Origin: an uncultured Chloroflexia bacterium | GTDB taxonomy: Bacteria; Chloroflexota; Limnocylindria; Limnocylindrales; CSP1-4 | Assembly (NCBI GenBank): GCA_963776395.1 | Contig: CAVZML010000006.1 | Location: 5,312-69,311 of the forward strand | Length of the DNA stretch: 64,000 nucleotides | Reading direction: 5' to 3' | In this document: positions 20,450 to 39,195 of the stretch, piece after piece | Position numbering within the stretch: position 1 is the stretch's first letter | Layout of the letters: every line of letters starts with the position of its first letter | Translations under genes and position numbers: made by a program | The notes under the pieces: generated by a model | Database searches by the model: none | What the model saw: only the letters and a program-made list of their open reading frames with translations | Told to the model about the DNA's origin: nothing

Positions 20450-20820
20450 AAGCCACTTGTCGGCATACTATGCTGGGCGCTCGATCTTGTCGACCAGAAC
20501 TCTTTCTTACACTGACCCGAATAAAACCGGAACTGATCGACCTACGCATCGGAACACGCTGGCAACGAGGATGTGAAACAGCTCGCCGTCATATCCCCTG
20601 CGATAATGGGCCCCGCGTACTTCCGCGAGGCCGCCGAAGTAATCAACGCTGCCGCCGGCGGCCCGCCCGATCACGCCAAAATGATGGACGTCTTCCGCCG
20701 TCATGGCATGACGCTGGCCGTGCCCCCGCCTGTTAAGTAGAGACGTTTGTAAGCCCGGTGTAGAATCCGGACGGTCTTGGTTCTTAAATCGGAAATGTCG
20801 GTTCATTCAGGAGGATAGTC

Positions 20821-21249
20821 GTGACAGCAGATGAGCAAGTCATCCAAGGAATCCTGCAACAAATCGAAAGCGCGTGGAATCGTTACGATAGCGTCAGCCT
20901 TGCAGCGATGTTTGCCGAGGATGCCAACTTCATCCAAATCTTTGGGGGACAGTTGGACGGGCGGGCTGCCATAGAGGCGTCGCACCGGCACATTTTCGAG
21001 ACGATCTACAGGGGCAGCCATGCCAGTTTCGTACTACGGAGCATCCGCTTTCTGCGCCCCGATGTCGCAGTGGTATTCGCCCGAGCGCACGTGAAGTTCA
21101 AGGAAGGCAACGAAGCGCGCGAAATAGAAACCCGCCCAACGTTGATCGTCGTAAAGGAGCAGGACAAGTGGCAAATCGTCGCGTTCCAAAACACCAAGAT
21201 CTCCGAGGTGCCAGCCGCAGCCCAAGCCGCAGCCCGTCTTGCAACTTAG
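20821..21249 (+). CDS. SnoaL-like / SgcJ-EcaC family protein, copy B
   Basis: 142 aa, with 3 aa differences from 7627-8055. Confidence 0.7.
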   Translation: MTADEQVIQGILQQIESAWNRYDSVSLAAMFAEDANFIQIFGGQLDGRAAIEASHRHIFETIYRGSHASFVLRSIRFLRPDVAVVFARAHVKFKEGNEAREIETRPTLIVVKEQDKWQIVAFQNTKISEVPAAAQAAARLAT

Positions 21250-21503
21250 TGGTGAAACCTCGGCCCGCCCTCAACCAGCAGCAGGGACGATCTTGCGAAA
21301 TGCCGATGGCGAAAAGACCGTGCCTTGGGTTCCTTGGGAGGTCCCATGGGACGTCTCTCATCTCCACAGCCTCAACCTACGACCACCCATAGCAAAGAGA
21401 ACAACTGAGGCCGTATCGAACATCCGTGCTACCTGTGTCATACCATGCAGGTTGTCCAGTATAACCGTCATCTGGCGGGCGGCGATGGGCAAGTTGGGAT
21501 TAG

Positions 21504-22682
21504 ATGGCTATTTGGAGGAAGCTACATTCGACAATGACTTCATCTCTATTGGATCGTTCTCAATATCCATGCCTCCGCGACAGTGTGTATCTGAATCAAG
21601 CATCGTTGGGATTGATTGGCCAGCCAGCAGTCGCTGCGATGCACAACTTCCTTGAGAATGTGGCGAGGCATGGCAATCTCTTTATGTCGGACAGCGATGA
21701 GATCAACTACGGGCATGCCCTTAGGGGAGTTGCCGGCAGATTGTTTCATAACGATCCATCTCGCATCGCCATTCTTGCGAGTGCGAGCGAACTGCTGGGA
21801 CAATTTCCTCTGCTACTTCGTCTCAAACCCAATGCCACAATTCTTGCAGTTTCCTCCGACTTTCCCGCAGTCACTCGCCCGTGGATTCGCCAGTCCTATT
21901 TTGAAAAAATCCATGTTCGTTTTGTCGATGATCTTCCTGATCGTGATCTGACAGACGCCATCATTAACGCCATAGACGAAACCACGGGTGTCATAGCTGT
22001 TGGCAGTGTGCAATACGCTACAGGCACCCTCGTGGACGTTAGTCGCGTGGCCAGAAGTGCTCAGAAGGTGGGCGCATTCCTGATCGTTGACGCGACCCAA
22101 GCGGCCGGTGCAATGCTGGTGGATACCTCGACGTTCGAAGCTGCTGCGGTGGTTACCAGTGGTTATAAGTGGTTGGGCGGACATGGGGGCGTCGCTTTGG
22201 CAGTCGTGTCTGAGTCCTTACTGAAACAGCTTCCGATTTTGCCGGGCTGGATGGGCGCCCCTGATGCTTTTGACTTCGACGCTAAATCAGTTTCCTTCGC
22301 GTCCGATGCTCGGCGCTTCACGCAGTCCACCATGTCCTATGTCTCGATAGCGGGTCTCACTGTTTCTATCGAACAGCTGTTGTCCCTCGGGGAGAACCGA
22401 ATTGAAGCGCATGCACATCAATTGGCCGCGCTGCTGGTTGATGGCGCTCGCGAATATGGCTGGGAACCGTTTCATGACGTTCATGGTGTGGCCGCATCTC
22501 CTCACATCATCTCGCTTGCACACAGCCGAAAGAGCGCACGGGAAACCGTGGAGAAACTCCGCGACCAGAGGATTATATGTTCGGCGCGCGGCGAACGGAT
22601 CCGAGTATCCCTTGCTCCTTACAACGATGCAGGTGACGTGATGAAGCTTTTTCAGGCGCTCGCGGGGTTTCATTCCGCATGA
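21504..22682 (+). CDS. Class-V aminotransferase-fold PLP-dependent enzyme (cysteine desulfurase / selenocysteine lyase-like), intact copy B
   Basis: 392-aa ORF with a class-V fold pattern, including SGYKWLGG (candidate PLP lysine). Confidence 0.75.
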   Translation: MAIWRKLHSTMTSSLLDRSQYPCLRDSVYLNQASLGLIGQPAVAAMHNFLENVARHGNLFMSDSDEINYGHALRGVAGRLFHNDPSRIAILASASELLGQFPLLLRLKPNATILAVSSDFPAVTRPWIRQSYFEKIHVRFVDDLPDRDLTDAIINAIDETTGVIAVGSVQYATGTLVDVSRVARSAQKVGAFLIVDATQAAGAMLVDTSTFEAAAVVTSGYKWLGGHGGVALAVVSESLLKQLPILPGWMGAPDAFDFDAKSVSFASDARRFTQSTMSYVSIAGLTVSIEQLLSLGENRIEAHAHQLAALLVDGAREYGWEPFHDVHGVAASPHIISLAHSRKSARETVEKLRDQRIICSARGERIRVSLAPYNDAGDVMKLFQALAGFHSA

Positions 22683-22867
22683 GCTCCCGCGATAGCGTTC
22701 ATGGAGAGAATGCCACCCCTCAGGGCAGCCCACTTGTGGGCAGAAGAAGGAGCACGAAAAGGCCCTCAAGAGTAAAGAAAGAGAGAGCAGCCGCAAACGA
22801 CCGCCAGTTCCTCTCCGAGAGGAGGAAGCGCTCTGAGGCAATGTTGGCCCGTATGACCTGAAAACGA

Positions 22868-22944
22868 TGGTAGGCCCGTGGGGACTCGAACCCCAGACCT
22901 CTACCGTGTCAAGGTAGCGCTCTAACCAACTGAGCTACGGGCCT
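22868..22944 (-). tRNA. tRNA-Val (anticodon GAC)
   Basis: Folded by hand into a 77-nt cloverleaf: acceptor AGGCCCG/CGGGCCT, D-arm GCTC-AGTTGGTTA-GAGC, anticodon arm CTACC-TTGACAC-GGTAG, T-arm TGGGG-TTCGAGT-CCCCA, discriminator A and an encoded CCA. Confidence 0.92.
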
Positions 22945-22995
22945 AATGGTGCAAAATCATTCAGTTAGGCAACCTCGATTGTAACCCACGTCCAG

Positions 22996-23021
22996 GTTGG
23001 TGCACAAATTGGTGCACACCT
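22996..23021 (+). repeat. 26-bp direct repeat, left copy (GTTGGTGCACAAATTGGTGCACACCT)
   Basis: Matches 37328-37353 with 2 mismatches. Contains two GTGCAC palindromes 12 bp apart. Lies 51 bp from the 5' end of the tRNA. Confidence 0.7.
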
Positions 23022-23270
23022 TTCTGAATTTCTTGTGTAGCGACTCCCACCAAAGCTTGCCGCTGTGCTTCCGGTCGGATACCCAAATTCCCGACAAGTC
23101 GGAAGTCATCCCGCAACTTCTTCTCGACCGTGAAGTTTGTTTACGCGCTAAGGCGTGTTCTTGCCTGTTGAGTCTGGTGCCTGAAGCTCCGAGCGGTACG
23201 AGCCGCTTGTCCGTTTGCTGAGGCTTATCAACTGGCAGCTGCGACGGATGACGCCCCTGAACTACGTGGC

Positions 23271-26211
23271 TCAGCTTTCATCCTCTTTGTAGTCATCTTC
23301 ATCGTCATCACAACAGCAGGGGTATCCTTGCTGGCAACCACTCTGCTTGTGGTGCTGTTCGCAACACCCCTTACGGCAGTCCTCACAATCTTCCTTGCAG
23401 CGGCAGTCACTCCAGATGGTGTAAGCGAGCACTTCCAGAGTCTTGATGGGAGTAATCGGATCGTCGCTCTCAATGACCAGCTCGCAACATCTCGGGCACT
23501 TTTCGGTTGCTTTGTATCGAATGACGACGCTCAGGCACGAACCCGGGTGCAACGTCGCTGGGAAAGGATTGTTGATCAACTTCCAATGGCGGTTCTTCCG
23601 CTTGAACGCAACGCTGGTCACGTGCAGGGGGCACTGGCCCACGTTACAAATGGATAGAGTGCGGTCTGCACAGCAGCAAGCCTTCACCCCGCCGAAGTGC
23701 GTCGAGCCGGTCACAGCGAGCTTGCCGGAAGGAGCGTTGCCTGACACAGCGATTGTCTTTGGACCGGCGGGATCATTGCTGAACACGGTGATCGTAGCCG
23801 ACTGTGCGCCGTGGACGGCGGGCTGAAAGCGGATCGGTACTTCAATGGCAGTGCCCGCCTCGACCGTGAACGGGAAAACCAGCACGCTCGGGACTAGGAA
23901 CTCGCCGGACGACGAAGTAATACTGTTCACGGAAAGCGTGCAATGCCCGGCATTGCACAAGGTCACCGGTCCGTCTGCGAAGGAACCGATGCAGACATTC
24001 CCGAACTCGCCCGAATCGGCCACCATCGTGACGAGCCTTGGTGCAGGCGCGCTGCCCGAAACCTGGATAACCTTGGGACTCTTCAAGTCGTCGCTGGTTA
24101 CTGTGATCTTAGCAAGGTGCGTGCCGACGCTGGTGGGTTTGAAGCGGATCGGGATCTCGATTGAGTCGCCTGCGCCCAGGGCCAACGGGCTAGACAACAC
24201 CGAGGGAACCTGGAATTCCCCTGACGAGGAACTGATTCCGAAGATCGACAGTTGGCAGGCCCCGTTGTTGTTGAGCGTGAGTTCCATATCCATGAACCCG
24301 CCGACGCAAACATCGCCGAAGTTCCCGCTATCGGCGATTACGGTTTCTAGCGAGCCCGTTCCACGAGTGCCGCTGGTCTTGACATCGAAGTGTGGTGTGA
24401 CCGGGTCGTTGCTGGTGATTCGGATCGTGGCGGTCTCGAGAACACCTCGCTTCGTAGGCTCGAAGACAACAGTGAAATCCACATGATCGGTTGGGCTGAT
24501 CGTCAGAGGCGTGACTGGATTTGGAAGCACTGTGAAGTCGGGCGAACCCGAAAGGAGCGCAACGCTGTCAACAATCAGGTCAGTATTACCAACGTTGAAG
24601 ACTTCTATGGTCAAGAATTGGGGCTCGCTGCAAACGGTTCCGAAGAGCAGATCGTCCTGCAGGTTGACGGCGATTGCGGGATCAGCCGCGACAATGTTGA
24701 CGACAACCGGGTCAGAAGGAATTCCGTTCGCAATCACCGTCATGTTATACACGCCAGTCGGCATTGCCGACGGAATGTCGATGATAGTGGTGTGAACATT
24801 AGGGCCCGGCGCAATGCCCATGGTTGAGTAGTCATGCGTGCGCGCGTAAACCACTGTGCTGCTTGTTGTGCTGGTCAGCCTCACGATGGGGTAGTTGGTC
24901 GCCATCTGTGCGTCGTCCCCATAGCTGCACGCCTGCGTCAATCCGTTGATCTGCTTGCCCGAAACCGTGTAATGGTGCCCGAAGGCCATGATCGAGGTGA
25001 ATCCGGTGATGACGGGTTTCCAGGCAGCCTTGGGCGCGGGATCGGCAGGATCCGCATTGAAGATACCAATCGAGTTGATAAACATCGACGCAAACAGAAC
25101 CTGCCCGGTCGGCAGCAACAAGAACCGCGTGGCCCACGTATCGTCCGTGTTGTTGGTGGGCTGTTGAGACGAGGGAAGCTGTTTGAGAACATTCGTGGAA
25201 GGATCATATTCAAAGAGCCTGGTAGGGCCGGACCAGAAAGGATTGGCCCCTCCTTCATTCTTAGTGTTTCCGGCCACGCACAACACTTTGCCGCTTGGGA
25301 GGAGACATCCCGGTGCATCGATATTGGTCATCAGCGGGTTGATCGGACTAGCCGAGGAGTCTGCGGGAAAGTCAGGACCGGCGGACCAACCAGTGCCAGG
25401 CGTGTAGATGCCTGTGTGGCCCGTACCACCGATCGCAAGCAGCTTGCCATTCGGCAGAAGAATACTGGGGCCGAGTTCATTGACCGTAGCGGTCGTAGGA
25501 GGGCTCGTGGAATTTCGGTAACAACCGGCAAGGCTAGATTCGGAGGGTGGGACCCACGAGAGTCCAGAGATCGGTGGCCGGATCATAGATCTCAGTAGTT
25601 TGGGGATTGTTGGAAATATCAATCGCCATCACGGTGCCATCCTGAAGCAACGTCCAGGTTTCCTCGTTGCAACTTCCGGTTTTCGAAGACGGCGCACCCG
25701 GTGTAAATCCCAGTCCGGCTTCCGTCCAAGAATCACTTGCCGGGTCCCATATTGCAGTTCTGAACGTATTCAGGGATCCGAGAAGCACGCGCCCATCGGC
25801 GAGGATGCAGCCCGCGGCATCCCCCGCCACCCAGTTGAACGCGGCGGGTTTGTTCATGGGCGACCACTTATTGGTCAGAGGATCGAAGATTTCACCGAGT
25901 GGAGAATCAGATGGCGCCGAAGGATCGTCGGAGGTCTCTCCACCAATCACGTAGACTCTCCCGTCCCGAAACACACCAGAGGAGAAATACTGCCGCGCGT
26001 TAGCCATATGAATAACCGCTGACCATGATCCCGTTTCATACTTACCTTGGGCATCCGGGGTATAGCGGTACCATTCATTCCGTGGGGTAGCGCCGGGGTT
26101 CTCGGCATTGTGAATTAATACCGATCCATCTGTGAGCAGAATCATGGTATCGGGAAAGAACGTTTTCGTGCCGAATTTCGGCGGTGTAAGGTAGGTCCAC
26201 TTTACGGCCAT
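23271..26211 (-). CDS. Large kelch/galactose-oxidase-like protein with four Ig-like repeats and a Cys/Asp-rich tail (one frameshift near 25540-25620)
   Basis: ORF 25534-26211 plus ORF 23271-25622. Repeated kelch-like blades (DGRVYVIGG, DGRVLLGS, NGKLLAIGG, SGKVLCVAG, TGQVLFAS) are followed by a galactose-oxidase C-terminal-like Ig domain (YPIVRLTS...VYNMTVIANGIPS). Then come four ~105-aa repeats of pattern FG.VC.G....L.L.N.G...L.......S.EF.VPSVL......G..I..PI.F.P. The tail is CRCKEDCEDCRKGCCEQHHKQSGCQQGYPCCCDDDEDD. Confidence 0.7.
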
Positions 26212-26576
26212 ATTTTCTCCTGTCGACAGGGTCCCCGATTTTTGTGGGCGTACTTCTCCCGACAGAATTTCGGGTTCTAGTGCGCGCCCTTAAGGTGCTG
26301 TGAACTCCTCTGCCCATTTCTTGCTCTGGCTAGGGCGACTCGCAGCAATGGAAAGAGGCACTGCAAGACACGAGCCAACTCGGAGCGGAAAAAACGCCAT
26401 TCGACGTTCCCCGCGTTTGCTATGACATACAGCTCCGGGAACCTAATTCAGACCGATCGCTCGTTCGTTTTCGCTTGGTGGGCCTACCGGAATAGATAGT
26501 GGCGACTATCCGTTCCGCTAGTGTCCTGTAACTTGAATAAGTGAAACAAATATCGCGATCCGTGCGAATTGCTCTA

Positions 26577-26962
26577 TAAGGAGGAGAGCATCGCGCTGGA
26601 CGACCCAAGACCACTCTGAAATTGAATGAGGACGAGGAACGCGAATTCCCATCTCTGGCTCACCGATCACGCTCGGCACCGAAGCTGGCGCGCCGCGCGC
26701 GCATTGTGCTGGCTTGCGCCACGGAGGGAGTGACAACAAAACGGTGGCGCGCCAGGTGCACATCAACCCCGGAACGGTCGGCAAGGGGCGCAACCGATTC
26801 CTGCAGGACCGCCGCGAGGGGCCGTTTGAAGGGCTCGGTTTTTCGTACCAGGAACTCGCCAAGCTCTCCGACCCTGCCGTTCGCAAGACTGTCGGGATCG
26901 GCGCATACTCGCCCAAAATCATGACTTTGGGCAATCAGAAGTTTGAGAATTCGCGCTTGTAG
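26577..26962 (+). pseudogene. IS630-type transposase N-terminal HTH remnant
   Basis: GRPKTTLKLNEDEERE...RSRSAPKLARRARIVLACATEG, then (frame change) VARQVHINPGTVGK.RNRFLQDR.EG. This is the typical pattern of IS630-family HTH domains. There is no start codon and no DDE domain. Confidence 0.5.
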
Positions 26963-27909
26963 ATTCATCAATTTAGACAAGGGGCGTGAGGAGGTTTTTG
27001 GGCAGCCCTGATCGCTGCAAGGTGTTCACAAAACAGAATATCGAACACCATGTCGCACGAAGATGTTATGTGAATTTCAACGGGTTGGGGCAACCTGGAT
27101 AGGAAGGATATTTGAACGTGCGAACCGAGATTGTGGAATCGACACGGAATACTACTGGCGACCTATTTTGGACGAAGCGCAATTCCAGATCGCCCAGGAC
27201 CGGTTGTTTGCCTACGTGGGCAATTCGCTCATGGCTGATGTGGCGAAGGCCGGTCAACTCGCATCTTTCGTGGAGGAAAGCGATCGATTTTTCATCCCGC
27301 CGCCACACGGAGCTTTAAACAGCGCTCGACATGACCACTGTCCAAGGTGACCTTCGGGCCGCTCGACTGCGTGGTCATCAACCGCCATCGATTATTACAA
27401 GGATCTCAGCGGGATGGACCGAAGAAAGAGGGATCCGCGTGAACCATGGCATGGGACATCAACACCCGCAGAAGCCAACTATGTCCGTTTCCGACCGGAT
27501 TCGGGGTCAATCGAGGAATTCCTCCGAGGCATTTTCGATAAGGAGACTAGAAGGAAGCCGCTAGGTGGTTGCGGCGGATGCGTTGAGCTATGGGGATTTG
27601 CACGGACACTTTTCTGGCCAAGGCATTTCCGATCAAGGCTAGCGACAATCCGCACAAGATCTGACTGTGGCTTCCCTCATCGCAGGTCTCGCCCTGAGAA
27701 AAGCCCGCAGGATCGCTCTCAAAATCTCTTGTAATGCTTTTGGCTACGGCAGTACGAATAACAGGTTCTCGATTGGCCATTTCGCTCGTAAACTGAAATG
27801 AAACGAACCCGACATCCTGAGCACTATTTAACATTAAGACAAAGATGGAGCTAGCCTGAGTGATCGGCTACTGATAACGGCGGCTTTCGTTCGAACAAGT
27901 AGTGGACTC

Positions 27910-28200
27910 GTGGATAAACGTATCAAGATCGCCTTGGAAATCATGTGCCGCTCTTCCGCTGGGGCTCTCACAGTCTCCGACGTGGCCGCAGAAGTCGGGC
28001 TGAGCCCCTCCCGCTTTGAGCATATTTTGAAAGACGCGACCGGACGAACTTTCCGGCAACATAAACGTAGCGGACGCATCACGCGAGCGAAGACACTTCT
28101 TCAAAACTGACACTTGTCATTGAAGGAGATTGCCTATCTGCACCGGTTACTCCTTCGCCTTCGAGTTTCTCTCGCGCATTCCGCCGCTCGGTTTACCGAT
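27910..28200 (+). pseudogene. AraC-type HTH fragment (frameshifted, no sensor domain)
   Basis: LTVSDVAAEVGLSPSRFEHILKDATGRTFRQH...RITRAKTLLQN is followed by a stop, then SLKEIAY..TGYS.A.EF-like second-helix remnants in other frames. Confidence 0.5.
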
Positions 28201-28452
28201 CACCGTCACAATATCGAATTGGTGCTACTTATCGGGCGGCTAAGCGACCCCTTTGAAACACAGCAGGTCAAGTCAAGACGTAGCAGATTCGGTCAAGCGA
28301 TTCTCGTTGGCGCGGAGGCCTCCGCACCGTATATTCGCGCACTCGAAGGTTGCCCCCGAATGTTGTTGGCGAAAATCGACGGTGGACAAATCAGGTTCGT
28401 GAGTTAAGCAGCTGAGGCGCCTGCACATGTTGCAGGTTGCAAGGAGGAACAG

Positions 28453-28803
28453 ATGGCCCAGGCCGTATCCATTTCACTAAGTAAGTTTACCAGTTCGGTG
28501 CAAGCCGCGGTGAAGGCGGCCATCGCAAAGCATCCCAAATTTAAGGTTGAGGTGCCTCAGGGCGTGACCGTGGCCTTCTTAATCCGTGGTTTTCCCGTGC
28601 CCGACAGCATCGTATCGAACGTAACATTGGGCGAAACGCAGGCGTTCGCGAACGATGTCGCCGCGCAGATTGCCGGTTCACACCCGGAAGCTTTCGCTCT
28701 GACAAAATCGGGCCAAGCAACCGAAGGAGCCGTGCTATCGGTGGGCCGTCACGTAATCTGTGGGATTCCGCCTGTGACTCAGGTCTTTGAAATGGAGAAA
28801 TAG
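28453..28803 (+). CDS. Hypothetical protein (116 aa)
   Basis: Strong RBS aaggagga 5 nt upstream of the ATG, and an intact ORF. No family recognised. Confidence 0.55.
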   Translation: MAQAVSISLSKFTSSVQAAVKAAIAKHPKFKVEVPQGVTVAFLIRGFPVPDSIVSNVTLGETQAFANDVAAQIAGSHPEAFALTKSGQATEGAVLSVGRHVICGIPPVTQVFEMEK

Positions 28804-29243
28804 TGGGAGAGCGCGTGTCAAAGCTTTGTCCCAGCGCGCAGCCTGGCATGGATCAGTGCACGGTCTTAGGTGTAGTCCAGCATCAAGGTCCGAGACCAAT
28901 GCTGGAATATCTTAAGGAACCTGTATCTGCCAGCCCAGACATTCTGGCGATGGCCGCTCCGTTGAAACCAACCGAAGTCTTTCGCCTGTCTGCGACCTGT
29001 GCAGAACACAAGTGCCCACATTTCGATGGTGCCGATTGTCGGCTCGCCACCAGAGTAGTGCGCATTTTGCCAGCCGTAGTCGACATCTTGCCACCTTGTA
29101 TCATTCGCAAGGGATGCCGGTGGTATTTCCAGGAGGGTGGTGCTGCGTGCAAGCGGTGTCCTGAGATCACAACCGTGACCTATGATCTGTCGGCGCAACT
29201 CGAAGAGGTTTCCGGGCTCCCAGTGATTGAGGAAACAACGTAA
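28803..29243 (+). CDS. Hypothetical Cys-rich protein (146 aa)
   Basis: The GTG start overlaps the stop of the upstream ORF. About 10 Cys, including CAEHKCPHFDGADC and CKRC. No family recognised. Confidence 0.5.
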   Translation: MGERVSKLCPSAQPGMDQCTVLGVVQHQGPRPMLEYLKEPVSASPDILAMAAPLKPTEVFRLSATCAEHKCPHFDGADCRLATRVVRILPAVVDILPPCIIRKGCRWYFQEGGAACKRCPEITTVTYDLSAQLEEVSGLPVIEETT

Positions 29244-29480
29244 ACGCGATTAGTCCAGATGGTTTCCTGGCTGCTGGTCAACCCACAGAACGTGACGTTG
29301 CATGAAGATCCTCTTCAAGCTCCACCTTTACCGTCGTAGGTCGCAGTGGTATATGCGCCCGCCGAGCACAAAGAGATTGCACCCTTCGCAAACCGGAGCG
29401 GCGTGTGCCTTGTTGGCTCCTTTGATGTTTTCCTGTCCAAGGTCAAAAGGATATGTGGGTCATTTGAAGGGAGGCCTAAC

Positions 29481-30227
29481 ATGGCTATTGCAAAATACAG
29501 TTTTGCTGCGAATGGATGGATTGGCCCGGTTGTGGAGGGTAGAAATAGGTTCGACTGGAAAATAGCGAAGACGAGAAATCCGATTTGCTTCCTTGTCTTG
29601 CCTCAGCTGGCCCTCCGTTTAGTTGTGATGGTCGCCGTCTGTGGGGCAGGCATAGCTCAAGCCGCTAGCTGCATTCCAGGTAGCCAGGCCGTACCTGCTG
29701 GCTCTTACCTCCAAACATGCAGTGGAGCCTCCGTTTCCGGCACCACCTTGAGGGCCGACTGCAAGGAGGTCACGGGCTCCGCACACACAGGCAGCGAGCT
29801 TCGTGACTGCCAGAATTGTCTGCCTCAATCGGACATCGCCAACTATAACGGTGAGTTGCATTGCAGCAAGGGGAATATGCCTTTCTCTGGCTCCTACATG
29901 CAGACCTGTCGCTTCATTTATGTCATCGGCACCACGCTCATCGCCGATTGCAAGGAGGATTCGGGTCGATGGCACGGTGCAGTGCAGCTACCCAACATGT
30001 TGAGTTGTTTGAACGGCTCCATTATCAACGTTTCTGGTGTTCTTCAGTGCAGCTCGGCACCACCTCCGGGCGGCTCCTACAAGCAGTCCTGTGATGATAT
30101 TTGGTACTTCGATGGCGTCTTGCATGCCCGTTGCAGGACGACATCAGGCAACCGGAACTCAACGCAGTCGAAGGCATCGCCAGGGTCAGCCTGTAGCAAT
30201 CAGAACGGCAACTTGCAGTGTCAATAA
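29481..30227 (+). CDS. Secreted CVNH-like (cyanovirin-N homology) lectin-repeat protein
   Basis: RBS gaagggagg before the ATG at 29481, and a hydrophobic signal-like segment (LRLVVMVAVCGAGIAQAAS). Three ~55-aa repeats have the pattern SY.QTC......GTTL.A.C....G.......L......I.N..G.L.C, resembling cyanovirin half-domains. Confidence 0.6.
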   Translation: MAIAKYSFAANGWIGPVVEGRNRFDWKIAKTRNPICFLVLPQLALRLVVMVAVCGAGIAQAASCIPGSQAVPAGSYLQTCSGASVSGTTLRADCKEVTGSAHTGSELRDCQNCLPQSDIANYNGELHCSKGNMPFSGSYMQTCRFIYVIGTTLIADCKEDSGRWHGAVQLPNMLSCLNGSIINVSGVLQCSSAPPPGGSYKQSCDDIWYFDGVLHARCRTTSGNRNSTQSKASPGSACSNQNGNLQCQ

Positions 30228-30520
30228 ACTCCCCAATTGCAGTACTGCAAAAATGGCCGGGTGCGACACCAAGGTCAAACCGTTTGACCCGTCCTGCTGA
30301 GCCATCTCCTTAGGTTGAGCCACGCTGAATTGTCGATTGAGCTCACCTGAACCTGTCAACGAATCTGCCGGAAGAAGACGTTCGCCAACCCAGATCGGTA
30401 AATGCGCAAGTGATAATTGCACGTCGACGAATTCGAGGCAATAAGCGTTATCGGCCGCGACTTTGACTTTTGACTGTAGGTCGCTTCACGCGCTTCTTCA
30501 TGTAGAATGACTCCATTCTG

Positions 30521-31150
30521 GTGCGGAGTTCGGCGGCTGGCATGGCAGAGCTCAAGAAGGACTGGGTATTAAACCCAGGGGCGTTTCAGCGTCTTCTCGA
30601 ATGGCTGGACCGCGGTGGAGATTCGGCCGGACACGGGTACCTTGAAGTGCGCCGACGGCTCACGGCATATTTCGATCGAAAAAACTGTCACTCATCCGAC
30701 GAATTGGCTGACGAAACGCTCAATCGCATTGCTCGCAAACTCGAAGAAAAGGGCACTATCATTGACGTATCTCCGCTTCACTATTGCTATATCGTGGCTA
30801 AGTTTGTTTTCCTGGAAAGCTTTCGCCGCGCCAAACTTAGGGAGAACCGCACCACGGAGTTCTTGGCTTCTGATTGCCACTCCCTGGATTCCGCTGCGGC
30901 TTTCGAACTGAGCGCCGGGGACTCGAAGGAAAAGCTGTTCGGCTGCCTCGAGGAATGCTTGAATAAACTGGCGGTCGAGGATCGCGAACTCATTCTAGAG
31001 TACTATCGCGGCGGACAGCGGGTGAAGATCGAGCGGCGGTCCGAACTTGCCAATCGTCTCGGCCTCACGGCGAACGCACTCTGCATTCGGGCATGTCGCA
31101 TTCGTAACAAACTGGAGGCTTGCGTAAAAACCTGTTCGAGCAGGAAATGA
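30521..31150 (+). CDS. ECF-type sigma-70 family factor
   Basis: 209 aa with a region-4-like C-terminus (DRELILEYYRGG...ELANRLGLTANALCIRACRIRNKL) and a divergent region 2. Its stop overlaps the next start (ATGA at 31147-31150). Confidence 0.7.
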   Translation: MRSSAAGMAELKKDWVLNPGAFQRLLEWLDRGGDSAGHGYLEVRRRLTAYFDRKNCHSSDELADETLNRIARKLEEKGTIIDVSPLHYCYIVAKFVFLESFRRAKLRENRTTEFLASDCHSLDSAAAFELSAGDSKEKLFGCLEECLNKLAVEDRELILEYYRGGQRVKIERRSELANRLGLTANALCIRACRIRNKLEACVKTCSSRK

Positions 31151-32163
31151 CAGATTTTGGCGGTTTTTGTCTTATGGGAGTAGGGATGATGGGTACCGCA
31201 GACAAGCACGAAGACGATGAGCAACTTCTGACCCGTTACCTGCTCGGCGCGCTGTCCGGCGACGAGGCGCAACGCCTGGACGAACAGAGCGTAACGGACG
31301 ATGAGTTCGCATGGCGACTGGATGCGGTCGAGCATGACCTCGTGGATGCGTATGCAAATAATGAACTATCAGGCGAAACGCTGGAGCGTTTCAAGAACTT
31401 CTACCTGAGCTCTGCCAAACGATTAGGGAAGGTAGAGTTTTCGCGAACTCTGCTGCGCTTCGCCGAAAAGCCGGCTCTGGCGGACATCTCAGCCGGGGCT
31501 AAGCGAGCTACTCCGGGTTCCAGACGGCTCGACAAATCGCTGGAAGCCCGTGTTCCCGTGCGATGGTTTGGGACGCCTCACTGGGGACTGCAGATGGGGT
31601 TAGCGGGCGCGTCGCTGCTGATGCTGTTCGCCGCAGCCTTTCTGTTTGTCAAAAATGGGCGACTGCAAGAACAGATCGCCCAGGCATATAACCAGCAAAT
31701 GGCTCTGGAACAACGAGCGCACAAACTGGAAAACGAGCTTGATGAGCAACGCTCCACTGATACCAAATTGCAGACCGAACTGGAGAAATTAAGCGAATCG
31801 ACGCCGGCGGCCAGGGCACTGAAGACAATCGCCGTGCTGCTGTTGCCTCAGACACGCGGATTCAGTCAAGTTACGACCGTTTCGATTCCTCCTGCGACCG
31901 ATCGCGTCACGCTGCGACTACAACTCGAGTCCGATGATTTCCCCATATATCGGGCCGCTTTGAAGGACCCCGCAAGCGGGCACAATGTATGGAGCGGCGG
32001 CGATTTGAAAGCGAGATCGGAAGGGCAGAAGAGCGTTGTATCCCTGAGCGTGCCTGCAACCGTGTTGAAGCAACAGAATTACAGCGTAGAACTCACCGGT
32101 GTTCCCGCGCTGGGAGCTTCTGAAATTCTCAGCAGCTACGCGTTCAAGGCGGTGTTCAGGTAG
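31147..32163 (+). CDS. Single-pass anti-sigma-like membrane protein
   Basis: N-terminal LLTRYLLGALSGDEAQRLDEQ motif typical of anti-sigma N-domains. One TM helix (GLAGASLLMLFAAAFLFV), then a coiled-coil segment and a ~150-aa external beta-rich domain. Translationally coupled to the sigma gene. Confidence 0.65.
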   Translation: MTDFGGFCLMGVGMMGTADKHEDDEQLLTRYLLGALSGDEAQRLDEQSVTDDEFAWRLDAVEHDLVDAYANNELSGETLERFKNFYLSSAKRLGKVEFSRTLLRFAEKPALADISAGAKRATPGSRRLDKSLEARVPVRWFGTPHWGLQMGLAGASLLMLFAAAFLFVKNGRLQEQIAQAYNQQMALEQRAHKLENELDEQRSTDTKLQTELEKLSESTPAARALKTIAVLLLPQTRGFSQVTTVSIPPATDRVTLRLQLESDDFPIYRAALKDPASGHNVWSGGDLKARSEGQKSVVSLSVPATVLKQQNYSVELTGVPALGASEILSSYAFKAVFR

Positions 32164-32203
32164 GGTCACGAAGCGCTGCTAGCTAGTGTGCTTGGGAGGC
32201 TAC

Positions 32204-35200
32204 ATGAGGCCAAGAACGTTGCACTGCCGATCGCGAGACGTTCGTTGGGCTCTTATGTCAATCATAGCGAGCGTTTTGTTTCTCATTTGTTTGAATAGAA
32301 CTGCCGTCGCGCAAAAGACATCGCCTAATTCTGGTGAGCAAGCCACCGTCCCGAACACGCTATCGTTGCACAGGCCGATCGACCGAATCCTGAAGCCTGG
32401 CGAGCAACACAGCTATCAATTTGCCCTGGTTGCTGGGCAATACGCCAGACTGGCGGTCGAACAGCGCGGTATCGAACTTGTGCCTGAAGTTCTTGAGCCT
32501 GACCAGGGACTGCTCGCCAAATTCAATGACCAAGTGCGGCCAACAGGCGAGCAACAAGTCTTTATCGTGGCGGACACGGCCGGCAACTATACCGTGAGGA
32601 TCAAAGCGAACCTGAAAGGAATGCCTGCAGGTTCCTACTCGATTCGCGTTGATGAGATTCGCGCAGCGGGGGAGGACGACCGGGCCCTATTTGAGGCGCG
32701 CAAACTGCAGACCCAGGCATTGTCGCTGCACCAGCCGGCAAGTACGATGAGGAGCTTCCGCTCTCCGAACGTGCCGTGGCCATCACGGAAAGAGTATCCT
32801 CGGCGAGTCCAGCTTATCTGGCGGGATTGATTCGAGACCTCGGAGCGGTCTACTGGTTGAAGCAGAATCCCAAGGCAAAAGCGCTCTTCGAGCGTTCCGT
32901 CGCGATGTTTGAGCAAGCATTGGGCCCCGAGGATCCGCAAACCGCTTACACCGAGAGCTGGTTGGGAATCGTGTATCGTGTTGATGGAGACTACGACAAA
33001 GCGGAACAGATATTGCGACGTGACCTGGCAATTTTGGAGAAAGAAGTAGGCCCCAACCATCCCTGGGTTGTAAACACACTGAGGAGCCAAGGCATCCTGT
33101 ACGATGCCCGGGGAGATTTCGACAACGCAATGGAGACCACTCAGCGTGCCTTGGGTATCGCGGCGAAAACCGTGGGCGAAGAGTCCCTAGTGTATTCGCA
33201 ACTTGAGAACAACGTGGGCTTGGTCTTCCTTGAAAAGCATGAATACACACACGCTGGCCCGCACCTGGAGCGCAGCCTAGCGATACAGGAGAAACTCTTC
33301 GGGCCGAGCTATCCGCCAATCGCAATCATCCTGCAGAACCTCGGGATCGTCGCACGCGAGGCGAAAAAAGATCCTCTGGCGCACCAGTACTACGACCGCG
33401 CGCTGGCCATTCGCGTGAAAAACCTGGGCCCGGAGAGTCGCGACGTTGCCGGCACCCTGGTAAACATTGCGAATCTGTATCACTCCGAAGGCGACGACAC
33501 AAAATGCCTGCAAACTCACCTTCGTGCGCTCAAGATCGTGGAGAAACGGCAAGCCCCAGCGAGGCGTTGACGATCATTTCTCTGGTAATGTCGCGAAAAC
33601 GTATGCAGCGCTGGGTGATTTGCCGAATGCGGTTTTGTACCAAGCCAGGACCGATGCCGCCATTGAACGGGCCATCGCCGCAAACGTCATCATCGGGTCA
33701 GAGCGGCAAAAACTACTTTTTCTCCATGGCGATATCTCGAATCGGACGGACCGAACCGTCTCACTCAGCTTGCAATTGGCGCCTAAGAATCCCCAGGCGA
33801 GTTCGTTGGCCGCTTTGGTCCTTCTACAGCGCAAGGGGCGTGTGCTCGATGCGATGACCGACTCGTTCGGCAAGCTGAGGCAGCGCGCGGATGCCGGCGA
33901 TCAGGCGCTATTGGATGAATTGATGAAAACCACCACGCAACTGGCACAGTTAGTTTTATATAGCCCAGGAAAGACTCCTGCTGAGGAGCTCCAGAAACGG
34001 GTGAGAGAACTAGAGGATCGCAAAGAGGACCTGGAAGCGGAAATCAGCCGGCACAGTCTGCAATTCCGTGCGCAGTCCCAGCCCGTGACACTGGAATCAG
34101 TGCAGGCAGCGATTCCAGAGAATACGGCGCTGCTGGAATTTACGGCGTATAAGCCATTCGATCCCAAGTCGATCAGCACCAGCACTAACTACGGCGAGCC
34201 TCGCTATGCTGTCTTCGTGATTCGCAGGACCGGAGCGCCGCACGCAGTGGATCTCGGCGAGGCCAAAGCGATTCAAAAGGCATTAGAGAAGTTTCGCGAA
34301 ACCTTGCGCGATCCGCTGAACGGTGATGTGCGGGAGTCCTCACGAGAGCTGGACGCCATGCTGCTGCAGCCAGTTCGGGGTTTGCTGGGCGACGCAACAC
34401 AGTTGTTGATCTCGCCGGACGGTGACCTCAATCTCATCCCATTTCAGGCGCTGCTCGACGAACAAGGGCATTATTTGTTGCAACGTTATTCGATCGGGTA
34501 TCTGACCACCGGGCGTGACCTCTTGCGCATGCAGATCAGCCCCGCAAGCAAGAAGGCGCCGCTGGTGATGGCCGATCCGGCTTTCGGCGAGCCACAAACG
34601 ACGGAAGTTGTTCGTGCAGGGCAAACCCCACCTCTAACTGTGGCAAGCATGCGCCGCAGCGTCACGACGGCCAAAGATCTCTCCGGTGTCTATTTCGCGC
34701 CGCTCGGTGGCACGGCCATCGAGGCGCGGGCCATTCACAACTTGTTTCCAGAAGCGCAGGTCCTCACGGGACCGCAGGCAGCGAAGGATATTTTGAAACA
34801 AGTCGAAGCCCCGGGCATTCTCCACATTGCCACCCACGGTTTTTTCTTGCAGGAAGCAACCGAAGGTAAAACTTCGCCGCCGAGAACGGCTGCAACGAAA
34901 GACGCTCCTGAGAAAGAAGATCAGCCAGTTTGCGAAATCCGCTTCTTCGATCCGGCCTGGCACTGGCCGGCGCCAATGTGAACAAGACCGCAGCCGACAA
35001 TGGCATTCTCACGGCCCTAGAGGCTTCCGATCTGAACCTCTGGGGTACAAAGCTCGTCACCCTATCGGCCTGCGACACCGGAGTCGGCGAAGTGAAAAAC
35101 GGCGAGGGCGTCTACGGATTACGCCGCGCATTCATCCTGGCCGGCACCGAATCGTTGGTCATGAGCCTCTGGCCCGTCAGCGACTATGTGACGCGACAGC

Positions 35201-35364
35201 TGATGACACAGTATTACACGGGCTTGAAGAACGGCCTCGGCCGAGGCGAGGCGCTGCGGCGGGCGCAACTCGCCATGCTGAATCGCAAGGACCGGCAGCA
35301 CCCCTTTTACTGGGCCAGCTTTATCCAGGTCGGAGAATGGGCCAATCTCGAAGGCAAGCGCTGA
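32204..35364 (+). CDS. Secreted beta-sandwich/TPR/CHAT (caspase-like) protease, about 3 frameshifts
   Basis: Signal peptide (ALMSIIASVLFLICLNRTAVAQ), an N-terminal pre-peptidase-C-terminal-like domain, and TPR units (ORF 32776-33570). The CHAT domain has a His site (ILHIATHGFF, ORF 33467-34981) and a Cys site (LVTLSACDTGVG, ORF 34930-35364). Frame changes occur near 32738, 33550 and 34950. Confidence 0.75.
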
Positions 35365-35533
35365 GCGCCAAGTTCATTCAACCGAAGATCATCTCCAGCG
35401 CACTCTGCCATCTACCACTGAGCAACTCGTGCATCCTGCCGTAAAAAGCCGTCAGCCAAATGCGCGTTTTGCCCAGCGGAACCTCATTTGAAATGTTTTT
35501 GTCTTTTCGTCTTATCCCTACAAGAGCGTCCCC

Positions 35534-37162
35534 TTGGGCACTCCTTATTGTTCTGTGGCGAACGTGGTCAACGGAGGAGATGTGTCCAGATTTCAAACCC
35601 GCTATTTGCGTTGTACTTCGAGCAGGATCATCCTCGGGAAATTCGGAGTTGGCATAGTTGTGGGTCTTGTTGCCGTGCTGTTTGTTGGAGGAATCCTGGC
35701 GGTAGCTGCGGGCGGCAACCGCTTCATTCCGCGTTACGAGGAATTCCCGGATGCGGACGGCGGCCTTGCCAACCTGAATCTCGGCGGACCTACAGACACG
35801 ACCACCAATCCCTTTTTCCAGCCCATGGGCACTAACGGCCGCAGTTGTGTGACGTGCCACCAACCTAGCGACGCTTTTTCCGTTACCCCACGTCACATCC
35901 GTCAGCGCTTCGAGGCCACCCGGGGTACGGACCCGATCTTCCGCCCGGTGGACGGCGCGAACTGTCCAATGGCGGATGTTTCCACAATGGAGGAGAGGCG
36001 CGAGGCCTACAGCCTGCTGTTCAGCAGAGGGCTCATTCGCATCGGCATCGCCGTTCCGGAAAACGCGGACTACCAAGTCGTCGCCGTCTACAACCCGTAC
36101 GGATGCAATGCAACCAATGTCATTTCCATGTACCGGCGTCCGCTGCCGACCACGAATCTTCGCTTCTTGAGCGCGGTGATGTTCGACGGACGGGAATCCA
36201 CTCCGCTCACCGGCACCACCAAAATCATCTACAGCAATTATCCGGATTCGCTCATGGCCGATTTGGCGCACCAGTCGGTTGACGCCACAATCGGCCACGC
36301 ACAGGGAGACGGTACGCGGCCAACCGCGGAGGAGCAGCAGCAGATCGTGGATTTTGAAACGAAACTCTTCACCGCGCAGGTACACGACCGCCACGCCGGT
36401 AGACTTCGAGACGACGGTGCGCAGGGCGGCCCCTATTCTCTTTCTACGCAACCCTTTTTCATTACCATCAATTCAAGCGTACATTTTCTGCTTTCGGCAT
36501 TTGAGCAACCCGGCGGGTTGCTGACTCCGGGCGACGGCCAATTTACCGCGAATATTTTCAATCTTTATGGCAGTTGGGTATACACGAAGGACGACGATCA
36601 CGATCCGCGGACCACCGCACGACAATCCATCGCTCGCGGGGAGTTGCTCTTCAACACCTTGCAGATTCCCATCTCAGGTGTGGCTGGCATCAACGATGAT
36701 GTAGCGGCAGGAGGGCTCGTTGCCGGCGGCATTCCAGTGCTGCAGGGCAATTGCGCCACTTGCCACGACACGCCCAATGTCGGCAATCACTCTTTCCCCA
36801 CGCCCTTGAACATCGGCACCGGGGATCTCTCTCCGGACGACTCTTCCGTCAACCTGGGAGGTTTGGAGGTGAGTTACTTGCCGGAGATCACAGTGTGCAG
36901 GAAAGACCCCACTTCAGGCCTACCGACCAACAACTGTAAGACCACGACTGATCTCGGCCAGGCCTTGATCGATGGTAAGTTCGACCATGTTGGCAAGATT
37001 AAGGGACCGATCCTTCGCGGGCTGGCCGGGCGCGCACCCTATTTCCATAACGGCTCGGCAGCCACGTTACTGGACGCCGTCAACTTCTATGACACCCGCT
37101 TTAATCTGAACCTCAGCCAGCACGACAAAGACGACCTAGTCGCCTTTCTGAAGACTCTGTAG
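35534..37162 (+). CDS. Membrane-anchored di-haem cytochrome c peroxidase/MauG-family-like protein
   Basis: N-terminal TM helix (FGVGIVVGLVAVLFVGGILAVAA), two CxxCH motifs (CVTCHQPSDAF, CATCHDTPNVG) and the conserved GRAPYFHNGSAATLLDAVNFY region. The exact start is uncertain. Confidence 0.7.
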   Translation: MGTPYCSVANVVNGGDVSRFQTRYLRCTSSRIILGKFGVGIVVGLVAVLFVGGILAVAAGGNRFIPRYEEFPDADGGLANLNLGGPTDTTTNPFFQPMGTNGRSCVTCHQPSDAFSVTPRHIRQRFEATRGTDPIFRPVDGANCPMADVSTMEERREAYSLLFSRGLIRIGIAVPENADYQVVAVYNPYGCNATNVISMYRRPLPTTNLRFLSAVMFDGRESTPLTGTTKIIYSNYPDSLMADLAHQSVDATIGHAQGDGTRPTAEEQQQIVDFETKLFTAQVHDRHAGRLRDDGAQGGPYSLSTQPFFITINSSVHFLLSAFEQPGGLLTPGDGQFTANIFNLYGSWVYTKDDDHDPRTTARQSIARGELLFNTLQIPISGVAGINDDVAAGGLVAGGIPVLQGNCATCHDTPNVGNHSFPTPLNIGTGDLSPDDSSVNLGGLEVSYLPEITVCRKDPTSGLPTNNCKTTTDLGQALIDGKFDHVGKIKGPILRGLAGRAPYFHNGSAATLLDAVNFYDTRFNLNLSQHDKDDLVAFLKTL

Positions 37163-37168
37163 GCATAA

Positions 37169-37199
37169 GGAAACGGTACCTGCCGAACGTACAGTTTCC
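37169..37199 (+). terminator. Hairpin downstream of the peroxidase-like gene (weak terminator candidate)
   Basis: GGAAACGGTAC-ctgccgaac-GTACAGTTTCC forms an 11-bp stem with one mismatch. No U-tract follows. Confidence 0.3.
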
Positions 37200-37327
37200 A
37201 CCCACCAAGCCAATCTTGCGCGAATTAGGAGCGAAAGGTACGAACTTCTCCGGGCGCGCTTATCGAAGAAGTGGCTCTTAGTACTCGCCTCTACGAGCTC
37301 ATAATCCGCCAGCGGCAGGTTCAGAGA

Positions 37328-37353
37328 GTTGGTGCACATTTTGGTGCACACCT
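37328..37353 (+). repeat. 26-bp direct repeat, right copy (GTTGGTGCACATTTTGGTGCACACCT)
   Basis: Partner of 22996-23021. Confidence 0.7.
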
Positions 37354-37460
37354 AGGTCAAATTAGATAGCAAGTGGTAGTAATGGAACGAGCGACCTAAG
37401 TTGCTGGGATATAATGTGATAGCACAAGACGACGGTCGGCAGTAGGTGTCTGGTTTTGAA

Positions 37461-37499
37461 GTGTCAGGGTAGCGCTCTAACCAACTGAGCTACGGGCCT
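37461..37499 (-). repeat. Orphan tRNA-Val 5' half (position 1 to the anticodon loop)
   Basis: 39 nt equal to 22906-22944 apart from one mismatch in the anticodon loop (gtgtcaG versus gtgtcaA). No 3' half follows. Confidence 0.85.
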
Positions 37500-37517
37500 A
37501 TTTACACCTCTAGAATA

Positions 37518-37835
37518 TCACGCCTGCTGGCCTGAGAGAATTTCGTACACACTCTTCCACTCCGCCTCATTAGCGGGCTGCCACGCAGCTCCCAAACCAC
37601 GCACCGCGCTCTGCACTTCGGCAAAAGGCCGGTCCGCAAGCACCTTTTGCAATCTCAGCCACTCATCGCGGACATCCTGAATCTCGTCGCCGCTCGCCTC
37701 AGCCAGAAATTCTTTCACCGCTTCGCCCGCCGACTCATATTCTTCCGCAAAATCCTCATGCAGGTAGGCGGGAAAGAATTCCTGCAGCGCCGGATAATCA
37801 TTCGGATCGAATCCCTTCTTCTCTTCGTGCTTCAT
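37518..37835 (-). CDS. CDI-type immunity protein family member
   Basis: 105 aa. YPALQEFFPAYLHEDFAEEY...EFL......EIQDVRDEWLRL matches the pattern of contact-dependent-inhibition immunity proteins. Its ATG overlaps the stop of the upstream toxin gene (ATGA). Confidence 0.65.
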   Translation of the reverse strand: MKHEEKKGFDPNDYPALQEFFPAYLHEDFAEEYESAGEAVKEFLAEASGDEIQDVRDEWLRLQKVLADRPFAEVQSAVRGLGAAWQPANEAEWKSVYEILSGQQA

Positions 37836-38383
37836 CTGCCAGCCTCCGGGTATGCCGTCAGCACGTAGAAACCGTCCGGCCCATCGGCGCGCAGCACAAT
37901 CACTGCATCGGTGCACGCCTCCGCAGCGCTCTCCCCTCGCCGTAAGCTTCGGCCAATCGGCCGGGCCGCCGAATAATGCAGAGCCAGGTTCGGACGCGGA
38001 TAGCCACGCCTCATCCAACTTTCCACGCGCCCGCGTTTGTCTCGCAGCGCTTCAGCCACCGTCTCTTCTGCCGTCGCGCGATCCGTCCACGTAGACGCCG
38101 CCGAAATGTTGCGTTCGCGTTCCAGCCGCTCCGCCAGTTCTGCGTTGGTTCGCGTCACGTGGCGACTCAACGTGTGCCCGCCGCGTTGCTCGTCGCGCTC
38201 CAGATCGTAGCGATCTTTCGTACTTTTGGGTGTCGCGGCTGTTTGCGCAGGACTGCTGCTTTCGACGCCGCTGTTACCAGGCGCGGGCGCCTTTCCGCAT
38301 CCGCCCGCGTGCATGGCCGCCAAGCACAGCATCAGCGCGGCAATCGCGCTAACAATCCATCCCCGCGTGCGCTTCCCCTTCAC
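37832..38383 (-). CDS. Lipoprotein with RNase-A-like (CdiA-CT type) toxin domain
   Basis: Lipobox-like signal (LMLCLAAMHAGGC). The domain carries RGGHTLSRHV..T.AELAERL...ASTWTD.ATAEE.V, resembling bacterial RNase-A-like toxin domains. Confidence 0.55.
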   Translation of the reverse strand: MKGKRTRGWIVSAIAALMLCLAAMHAGGCGKAPAPGNSGVESSSPAQTAATPKSTKDRYDLERDEQRGGHTLSRHVTRTNAELAERLERERNISAASTWTDRATAEETVAEALRDKRGRVESWMRRGYPRPNLALHYSAARPIGRSLRRGESAAEACTDAVIVLRADGPDGFYVLTAYPEAGR

Positions 38384-38518
38384 GTTCCTAGTCCGCTCCC
38401 GTTTCTGCCTAATGCCGCCGTCATCGCATCGCCGCCTCGAGTATACGCATATCCTTCATACCCTCGCACGCCTTCCCTTGGTTGTGACCGCGCCGAACCG
38501 GATGCTATTCTCAACTTT

Positions 38519-39195
38519 ATGGCTGATCTGCAACATCCCTCTCTCGACGACGCGAGCCTCGACTCCGCCACAGCTTCACCGACGACTACGCCTTCGTCTA
38601 TCAATCACTCCGCCCGCCAGGTGGAAGCCCTCCTCGAAGTCACCGAAACCATCGCCCAACAGCGCGACCTCAAAGCTCTCTTCCACGATCTCGCTGAGCG
38701 CCTCCACGGCGTTCTCGCTTTCGACTTTCTGGCTCTGGTCCTTCACGAGCCCTCCAACAACACCATGCGCCTTCATATCCTCGAGACGCACGATCCTGTC
38801 GAGCCCAAGCCGCAAAGCGAATTTCCCGTCGACGAAGTCCCCGCAGGCTGGGTTTGGCAGCATCAGCAACCATTCGTCATTCTTGATTCCTCCAAGGACA
38901 CGCGCTATCCCGCCTTCATGCAGCGCCTGCAAGACGCCGGTGTTCATACCATGGCGATGCTCCCGCTCACCACCGCGCAGCATCGCCTCGGCGCTCTTGG
39001 TTTCGGCCGCTACATTCCTCAAGGAGTCACTGAGCCTGAGATCGACTTCATGAAGCGCGTCGCCGCTCAAGTCGCGGTCGCTGTTGACAATGCCCTCAAC
39101 TTCCAAGCCGCCGAAGCCGCGCAGAAGCGACTCTCTCGCGAACGCGACCGCTTGCAGGTTCTGCTGGAGATCAACAATCTCCTCGTCTCTCCCGC
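38519..39195 (+). pseudogene. GAF-domain N-terminus of a sigma-54 activator-like regulator, truncated at the composition break
   Basis: MADLQHPS... GAF domain (LKALFHDLAERL...LALVLHEP...LPLTTAQHRLGALGF), then the linker coiled coil (RLSRERDRLQVLLEINNLLVS). No AAA+ domain follows. Confidence 0.7.

Follow-up and report, generated by a model that had tools for sequence, protein, structure and literature searches.

A 14.5-kb segment in an acidobacterial tRNA-Val(GAC) gene, very probably a decayed integrative element of reversed polarity

Described systems that carry a tRNA 5′ half, and the present locus

The 14.5-kb segment considered here (positions 22945-37460) is bracketed by a complete tRNA-Val(GAC) gene and an orphan copy of the 5′ half of that gene, and it lies in a 64,000-nucleotide stretch of contig CAVZML010000006.1, called the window below, in whose positions coordinates are given; the assembly comprises 4.39 Mb. 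In a preliminary description of this DNA the duplication of a tRNA 5′ half was termed unusual. It is indeed rare, yet already catalogued: among 3,919 tRNA-gene islands of the Islander database, 159 (about 4%) have a 5′ fragment of the tRNA gene (tDNA), against 3,760 with a 3′ fragment (PMC4383910). The partial 5′ end of a tRNA gene was also found in the attachment site (attP) of pelagiphages HTVC021P/022P, HTVC109P and HTVC120P (bioRxiv 10.1101/410191), and integrase (int) genes that overlap attP were described for Mx8 and SSV (PMC4383910).

With the 5′-fragment islands of Islander the window segment shares a full tRNA gene, a 5′ fragment that lies upstream in the same orientation, an anticodon-centred crossover and a tyrosine integrase; the full tDNA and the terminal fragment are oriented alike, the fragment being placed 5′ of the minus-strand tRNA, as the configuration rule of Islander has it. 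The window copy differs in that its integrase was lost: Islander looks for an integrase gene within the island and a remnant alone is present there, so that the segment would be discarded by the integrase filter. A further difference from this class is that the integrase clade concerned, referred to below as Val-5′, has a polarity opposite to that of sister clades sharing its arm layout. The pelagiphages resemble the locus in that the gene is rebuilt with element-derived 5′ sequence, but they are SAR11 podoviruses with junctions verified by polymerase chain reaction, whereas the window holds an island with non-viral cargo, from a soil-type acidobacterium, that is known from sequence.

Repeated 10-bp sites, TTGGTGCACA, on both sides of the core are reminiscent of heterobivalent integrases (lambda Int, HP1, L5), and the structural model of an intact relative, of modest confidence in this part, may hint at a further likeness, namely a small N-terminal domain before the core-binding and catalytic domains. 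As in Mx8 and SSV, one site pair is located inside the int reading frame. The site sequence and its 12-bp tandem pairing set the locus apart from all these systems, and, unlike in Mx8 and SSV, the overlap would involve a disordered C-terminal tail of the integrase, as modelled, and leaves the gene unsplit. Cargo that lies between both attachment (att) sites, lacks recombination genes and is arrayed at one target is known from cis-mobilizable elements (CIMEs) derived from integrative and conjugative elements of Streptococcus thermophilus. By analogy, the window island may be likened to an integrase-less CIME; the mismatch in the overlap of the island may block mobilisation in trans. Reverse polarity itself is already documented; new are the acidobacterial family, its paired 10-bp arm sites and their overlap with the integrase tail, together with a clean case of one flipped-polarity clade among classical sisters.

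The split tRNA-Val gene and its empty site

The segment is very probably a decayed integrative element, which entered the tRNA-Val(GAC) gene of an acidobacterium with reversed polarity through site-specific recombination by a tyrosine integrase. The parts on which this reading depends, named as proximal or distal with respect to the integrase (int-proximal, int-distal), are:

22868-22944, minus strand: complete tRNA-Val(GAC), found by ARAGORN, for which it is the only tRNA of the window, and by Rfam (71.8 bits)
22961-23080, minus strand: 3′ remnant of a tyrosine integrase gene, the last 39 codons (22964-23080) plus stop, reading ...IRPEAQRQALVGVATQEIQKGVHQFVHQPGRGLQSRLPN up to the stop (tblastn, translation)
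22996-23021, plus strand: int-proximal pair of 10-bp sites, TTGGTGCACA twice with a 12-bp period (motif search)
37328-37353, plus strand: int-distal pair of 10-bp sites in non-coding DNA (motif search)
37354-37460, plus strand: int-distal att arm, 107 bp from the site pair to the crossover loop, with GATAGC/GGTAGT-type words
37461-37499, minus strand: tRNA-Val 5′ half with the 7-nt anticodon loop, tRNA positions 1-39, 39 nt, one mismatch (BLAST)

The second 5′ half and its single anticodon-loop mismatch had been pointed out before, and the BLAST search agrees: 22912 is A and 37467 is G, which corresponds to tRNA position 32, the first loop base in our numbering. Six pieces of tRNA-Val, including the full gene and all in the same orientation, were found in the assembly when the window tRNA was used as query. 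The working gene would be composite, with a native 3′ half and with a loop and 5′ half (22906-22944) supplied by the element, the latter being the int-proximal junction. The 26-bp direct repeat GTTGGTGCACAWWTTGGTGCACACCT, reported just inside both ends of the segment, occupies exactly 22996-23021 and 37328-37353, where 0 copies are expected by chance in the window. When sought elsewhere in the genome, as had been advised, no further copy was detected in the assembly, even with 4 mismatches allowed. The acidobacterial block of the window contains four TTGGTGCACA words (1 mismatch allowed), all of them within the two 26-mers, and no end-to-end similarity of the segment was found beyond the 26-mer.

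An empty site, with tRNA-Val directly before the sequence right of 37,499, was another proposed check. The joined query, composed of the full tRNA and the 141 bp right of 37,499 (218 nt), was searched in 201 genomes of the order, and genome G243 (locus L135) matches all 218 nt at 94% identity; its tRNA is 100% identical to that of the window and directly abuts a homologue of 37461-39120 (89% over 1680 bp). In six more genomes (L136-L141) the tRNA adjoins the homologous flank, hence the orphan 5′ half of the window remains joined to the native upstream flank that L135-L141 keep beside an intact tRNA. By this comparison the 14.5 kb was inserted into the locus, where it separates the tRNA body from the flank that belongs upstream of it. 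The empty site also excludes that 37461-37499 is a second, independently decayed tRNA-Val gene, which had been named as one of two outcomes that would refute the island idea and to which we assign practically no probability: beyond the presence of the copy nothing speaks for it, while the relatives have one tRNA-Val at the locus, fused to this very flank, and the copy stops exactly at the anticodon loop.

The bracket, made of a full tRNA-Val, 52 bp, a site pair, then after the cargo a second site pair, about 107-120 bp and a 5′ half, recurs with different cargo at at least nine other Acidobacteriota loci. Loci recorded for it are:

CAVZMQ010000026: 5.2 kb, different cargo
CAVUHF010000018: 11.6 kb, different cargo
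G077 contig 22: 4.9 kb, full tRNA and 5′ half at the ends
G078: 50 kb or more, on several contigs, with an intact integrase
G080: likewise on more than one contig, with an intact integrase

In CAVUHF010000018.1 (L077; flipped 24-kb stretch, 2348-2526) a third distal arm with a tRNA-Val 5′ half, inverted, is present 8.6 kb away on the 3′ side of the tRNA, which a simple integration model leaves unexplained. In L122, L065 and L086 some tRNA-Val 5′ orphans run directly into another int-proximal arm, so that reverse-polarity elements also stack in tandem on the 5′ side.

The preliminary description had suggested an element with the tRNA 5′ half in its attP and a crossover in the anticodon loop, and the empty site, the recurrence, the intact integrases and the conserved arms all agree with it. 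Read along the motif strand, attP would consist of the distal TTGGTGCACA pair, the arm of ~107 bp, the 7-nt loop, the remaining 32 nt of the 5′ half, 51 bp and the proximal site pair inside the last codons of the integrase. Strand exchange with the chromosomal tRNA gene would take place in the 7-nt anticodon loop, integration would rebuild the gene with the 5′ half of the element, and the native 5′ half with its upstream flank would be displaced by 14.5 kb. The tRNA follows immediately after the int gene and is read in the same direction, so that a transcript of it would have to begin in element DNA. The integrase would afterwards have been deleted to 39 codons, and the island is probably fixed in place. 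The comparison would settle the identity of the segment, and the locus provides a clean comparative example of reverse-polarity tRNA integration. It also lends itself to the question of how expression of a tRNA gene is maintained after separation from its own upstream region.

The paired 10-bp sites, their integrases and the polarity of the target

When 185,579 species genomes were scanned for exact copies of TTGGTGCACANNTTGGTGCACA, 84 matches were returned; with 20 bases fixed, chance would give about one (our estimate). The matches fall mostly in Acidobacteriota, with others in Verrucomicrobiota and Planctomycetota, and most of the catalogued matches in these phyla adjoin a tRNA gene or a tRNA half. 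Instead of a common genomic repeat, which would have spoken against an island, the 26-mer is a pair of TTGGTGCACA sites that marks both att arms of a widespread tyrosine-integrase family. Two contexts were distinguished. In the int-proximal one, the distance from a complete tRNA on the left to the motif is mostly 40-52 bp (80-98 bp in two Arg cases), and the motif is placed in the last codons of a ~404-aa integrase on the other strand, where it encodes VHQ-x-VHQ; in the int-distal one, the motif is non-coding and is followed by an arm of 110-165 bp and a tRNA half. The left copy of the window represents the first context, its pair being located ~51-52 bp from the tRNA 5′ end within the integrase tail (VHQFVHQ), and the right copy represents the second. 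The left arm of the window is 86-91% identical to seven loci, and the right arm (132 bp from motif to loop) is 76-87% identical to L122, L065, L076 and L109 and 62-68% identical to five other loci; both arms are thus kept in independent genomes while the cargo differs.

In some relatives TGTGCC-type repeats take the place of those encoding the VHQ repeat and give the tail peptide VAQNWAQ, and this variant was recovered in a search of five such genomes, in which a reversed-pattern control gave 0 matches. On the same strand and contig as the int-side copy, a second TGTGCC-type copy lies 44.6 kb away in G121 and 29.2 kb away in G194, with an orphan 3′ half (Asn in G121, Ile in G194) placed 142-143 nt past the beginning of the motif. 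The 10-mers of both arms therefore co-vary, both arms of G121 and G194 having TGTGCC-type pairs, and since the site sequence changes together on a coding and a non-coding arm, a role at the DNA level is indicated. The 10-mers would then be arm-type sites bound by the N-terminal domain of the integrase. A literature search for the 10-mer gave primers only. The paired 10-mers may serve as a simple tag for both ends of the family in genomes of Acidobacteriota, Verrucomicrobiota and Planctomycetota.

Distal arms (37354-37460 and 35 loci) are 6-9x enriched in TCGCA, GGTAG, GTAGC and GTCGC, several per arm; judged by this over-representation, a second protein, for instance an excisionase, may bind at these words. 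No fold signal was obtained for the distal arm of the window (z = -0.29). In the Verrucomicrobiota loci L041, L043, L050, L071, L082 and L116-L118 a TTGGTGCACA pair is located ~50-70 bp from the 3′ end of tRNA-Cys(GCA), and beyond it lies an open reading frame (ORF) of integrase-like size (267-394 aa), known by its size and pointing away from the tRNA.

The segment had been described as having no integrase, which holds for an intact gene; a 39-codon 3′ remnant is, however, present at 22964-23080, and it is 85-87% identical to residues 366-404 of L054 and 327-365 of L078 (tblastn). In L054, L078, L113 and L123 the intact 404-aa integrases stop 16 bp short of the tRNA-Val 5′ end, in the same position as the remnant, and in L113 an ORF of an excisionase family adjoins the integrase. 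The window integrase is reduced to 39 codons by a later deletion, and the island has both att sites and is not self-mobile. The L054 integrase matches PF00589 at 81.8 bits (Pfam), whereas the window retains just the tail that follows the catalytic region. Its AlphaFold (AF2) model, with a mean predicted local distance difference test score (pLDDT) of 71, places core-binding and catalytic domains after residue 49; residues 1-49, in which no Pfam match was obtained, are modelled as three strands and a helix (pLDDT 60-68), and from residue 377 on, the tail with the repeat peptide is modelled as disordered. The best Foldseek matches of the model are Tn1549 Int, XerA and full-length lambda Int.

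A further 26 integrase homologues were collected from 150 genomes of the order, and those with an adjacent tRNA are all classical; mostly their stop codon lies within ~10 bp of the tRNA 3′ end, and a few overlap the tRNA. In the tree the sampled Val-5′ integrases are united in a single clade (100/100 support) with a long stem, nested in a 100/100 group of classical clades sorted by target, where it sits in a polytomy. A distant clade is made up of the classical integrases whose target is the 3′ half of this tRNA-Val, and classical Val(GAC) integrases match the window solely at the tRNA overlap. No description of this Acidobacteriota integrase clade was found in the literature. Members of the Val-5′ clade (L054, L078, L113, L123) contain a ~30-aa insertion with four cysteines (CxxC...C....C) at alignment columns about 363-392, between the WRxAWRR motif and the HxxR box, which is absent from the classical L094 and L108.

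The polarity of the target was tabulated for motif loci catalogued beside an integrase C-terminus or a distal arm. All 11 int-proximal tRNA-Val(GAC) genes (10 loci and the window) are opposite to the motif strand, and the int-distal tRNA-Val pieces are 5′ halves in nine cases out of nine (8 loci and the window), covering positions 1-37 to 1-40. Other int-proximal tRNAs (Asn, Ile, Pro, Met, Arg) are all on the motif strand, and so are ~27 distal pieces (Pro, Ile, Asp, Asn, Thr, Ala), mostly 3′ halves starting at positions 28-33; thus the arm geometry was kept and the tRNA alone was turned round. The tRNA-Cys set of Verrucomicrobiota, with the tRNA on the opposite strand and its 3′ end nearest the motif, is a distinct arrangement. 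Since one clade flips its target and sisters with the same arm geometry do not, the family offers a natural system for the determinants of polarity.

These data bear on two other origins of the bracket. It may be argued that a large element cut the tRNA gene in the loop without rebuilding it and that the complete tRNA-Val is a replacement borne by the element, according to the logic of tRNA-dependent lysogeny. The arrangement of 3′ orphans to the left and a 5′ orphan at 37461 would fit, and phages that disrupt a tRNA gene and carry its replacement are documented (PMC10865867; pelagiphage HTVC019P, bioRxiv 10.1101/410191). Yet 22945-37460 is exactly the stretch enclosed by the conserved arm pairs and the integrase remnant, intact integrases lie right beside the full tRNA, the 3′ orphans have different arm sequences, and in one genome (genome A) the same bracket is present and the 7 kb inspected next to its tRNA contain no 3′ orphan; moreover, the broken target which such a replacement calls for is missing, as the element end supplies the 5′ half and so gives a complete tRNA (71.8 bits in Rfam). 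We consider this origin very unlikely. A rearrangement, by inversion or recombination, among classical islands at this tRNA could likewise leave a 5′ orphan, and the array is crowded and contains a 3.7-kb cassette twice; G082 has, beyond its tRNA, an additional inverted distal arm with a 5′ half. The clean empty site, the same polarity in all tRNA-Val members of the family and the dedicated integrase clade make such a rearrangement extremely unlikely, and favour integration with reversed polarity.

How the polarity came to be reversed is a separate question. The anticodons GAC (Val) and GTC (Asp) are reverse complements of each other, and the opposite-strand tRNA-Val loop shares the central TGTCA with the classical tRNA-Asp loop of relatives (GTGTCAA vs CTGTCAC). 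That the flip arose from this complementarity is a doubtful idea. If it were true, an integrase could jump between tRNAs with complementary anticodons by turning its target, which would be a general rule of target switching. With the Val clade in a polytomy, and the only Asp integrase included falling with the Ala and Thr clades, the tree speaks neither for nor against the idea; an origin of the Val clade as sister of an Asp clade was considered and is not supported by the tree.

Several points weigh against integration with reversed polarity as set out here. No intact integrase or excisionase is present in the segment, and hence its mobility is historical only. The mismatch at 37467 falls in the presumed overlap region and may block mobilisation. 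A simple scan upstream of either tRNA copy gave no sigma-70-type consensus promoter; a TAGAAT -10 box candidate was dropped, being on the wrong strand. Binding and recombination by this family are deduced from comparison of sequences, and the contig appears to be chimeric at about 39.19 kb, the junctions at 22.9 kb and 37.5 kb being known from the assembly.

The acidobacterial block, its join and the remaining features

The GC content of the window is 55% up to about 38.9 kb and 70-75% thereafter. The 71% GC genome has its own tRNA-Val(GAC) on contig 9, with just 56/77 nt identical to the tRNA of the window; the inspected genomes of its genus carry the contig-9 type, and no near-identical copy of the window tRNA-Val was found in 60 other genomes of this genus. 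This difference pointed first to foreign DNA. The window tRNA is 100% identical to the tRNA-Val of metagenome genomes of Acidoferrales (Acidobacteriota). The match to acidobacterial genomes runs unbroken from 37458 to about 39,189, and the match to the high-GC genus starts at about 39,186. At the join an acidobacterial GAF gene lacks its 3′ end and a DinB-like gene lacks its first ~80 codons, which were not found elsewhere in the assembly; with L135 as the source of the query, the native left flank of the tRNA was likewise missing from the assembly, and the acidobacterial block sits at the contig end. Because of the GC step, the Acidoferrales-identical tRNA, the limits of homology and the genes truncated at the join, the DNA left of about 39,187 is probably a piece of an Acidoferrales-like acidobacterial chromosome that was joined by an assembly error, and the 55% GC block is not to be taken as part of the 71% GC genome.

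Given such a chimeric contig, and many frame-shifted genes in the block, the placement of the segment itself could be thought an assembly artefact. We give this hardly any credence, as both junctions match the family architecture seen in independent assemblies and relatives share the gene order of the flank to the right of the orphan. The flank and the join comprise:

37500-39187: native acidobacterial flank, outside the element (Pfam; 89% identity to L135, 76% to G082, same order)
37518-38018, minus strand: CdiI-like immunity gene (Pfam)
37832-38383, minus strand: free-standing RNase-A-like toxin gene (Pfam)
within 37500-39187: GAF gene, cut off at the join (Pfam)
39185-39192 (about 39,187-39,190): join of acidobacterial 55% GC DNA to unrelated 71% GC DNA, genes truncated on both sides

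It follows from the empty site that the CdiI/RNase-A-like pair, like the GAF gene, belongs to the native surroundings of tRNA-Val; the CdiI-like and RNase-A-like genes (37518-38383), kept beside the empty site in L135-L141, are not cargo. The cargo as a unit is absent from 200 genomes of the order, which gave single-gene matches only. Its features are:

23081-37327: cargo region (Pfam), several genes split by frame changes
23271-26211, minus strand: split kelch/Ig protein (Pfam)
29346-30227: CVNH lectin (Pfam)
31120-32163: zf-HC2 anti-sigma-like ORF (Pfam)
32776-34981: TPR plus CHAT (Pfam)
35534-37162: multi-haem cytochrome c-like protein (Pfam)

The ORF at 30521-31150, which had been labelled 'sigma', has no Pfam hit.

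The 3′ side of the tRNA (1390-22912) is occupied by an array of four cassettes without integrase, delimited by tRNA-Val 3′ halves:

1390-1434, 9670-9714 and 19212-19256: tRNA-Val 3′ halves, 45 nt, ending at the anticodon loop GTGTCAA (BLAST)
6017-6052: damaged tRNA-Val 3′ half (BLAST)

The sole integrase trace of this array is a fragment at about 739-1212, and many of its genes are split (SBP56, sigma-54 activator, ISL3 transposase). The 3.7-kb cassette at 6053-9714 is repeated at 19257-22912, and the identity of the two copies climbs from 95% to 100%.

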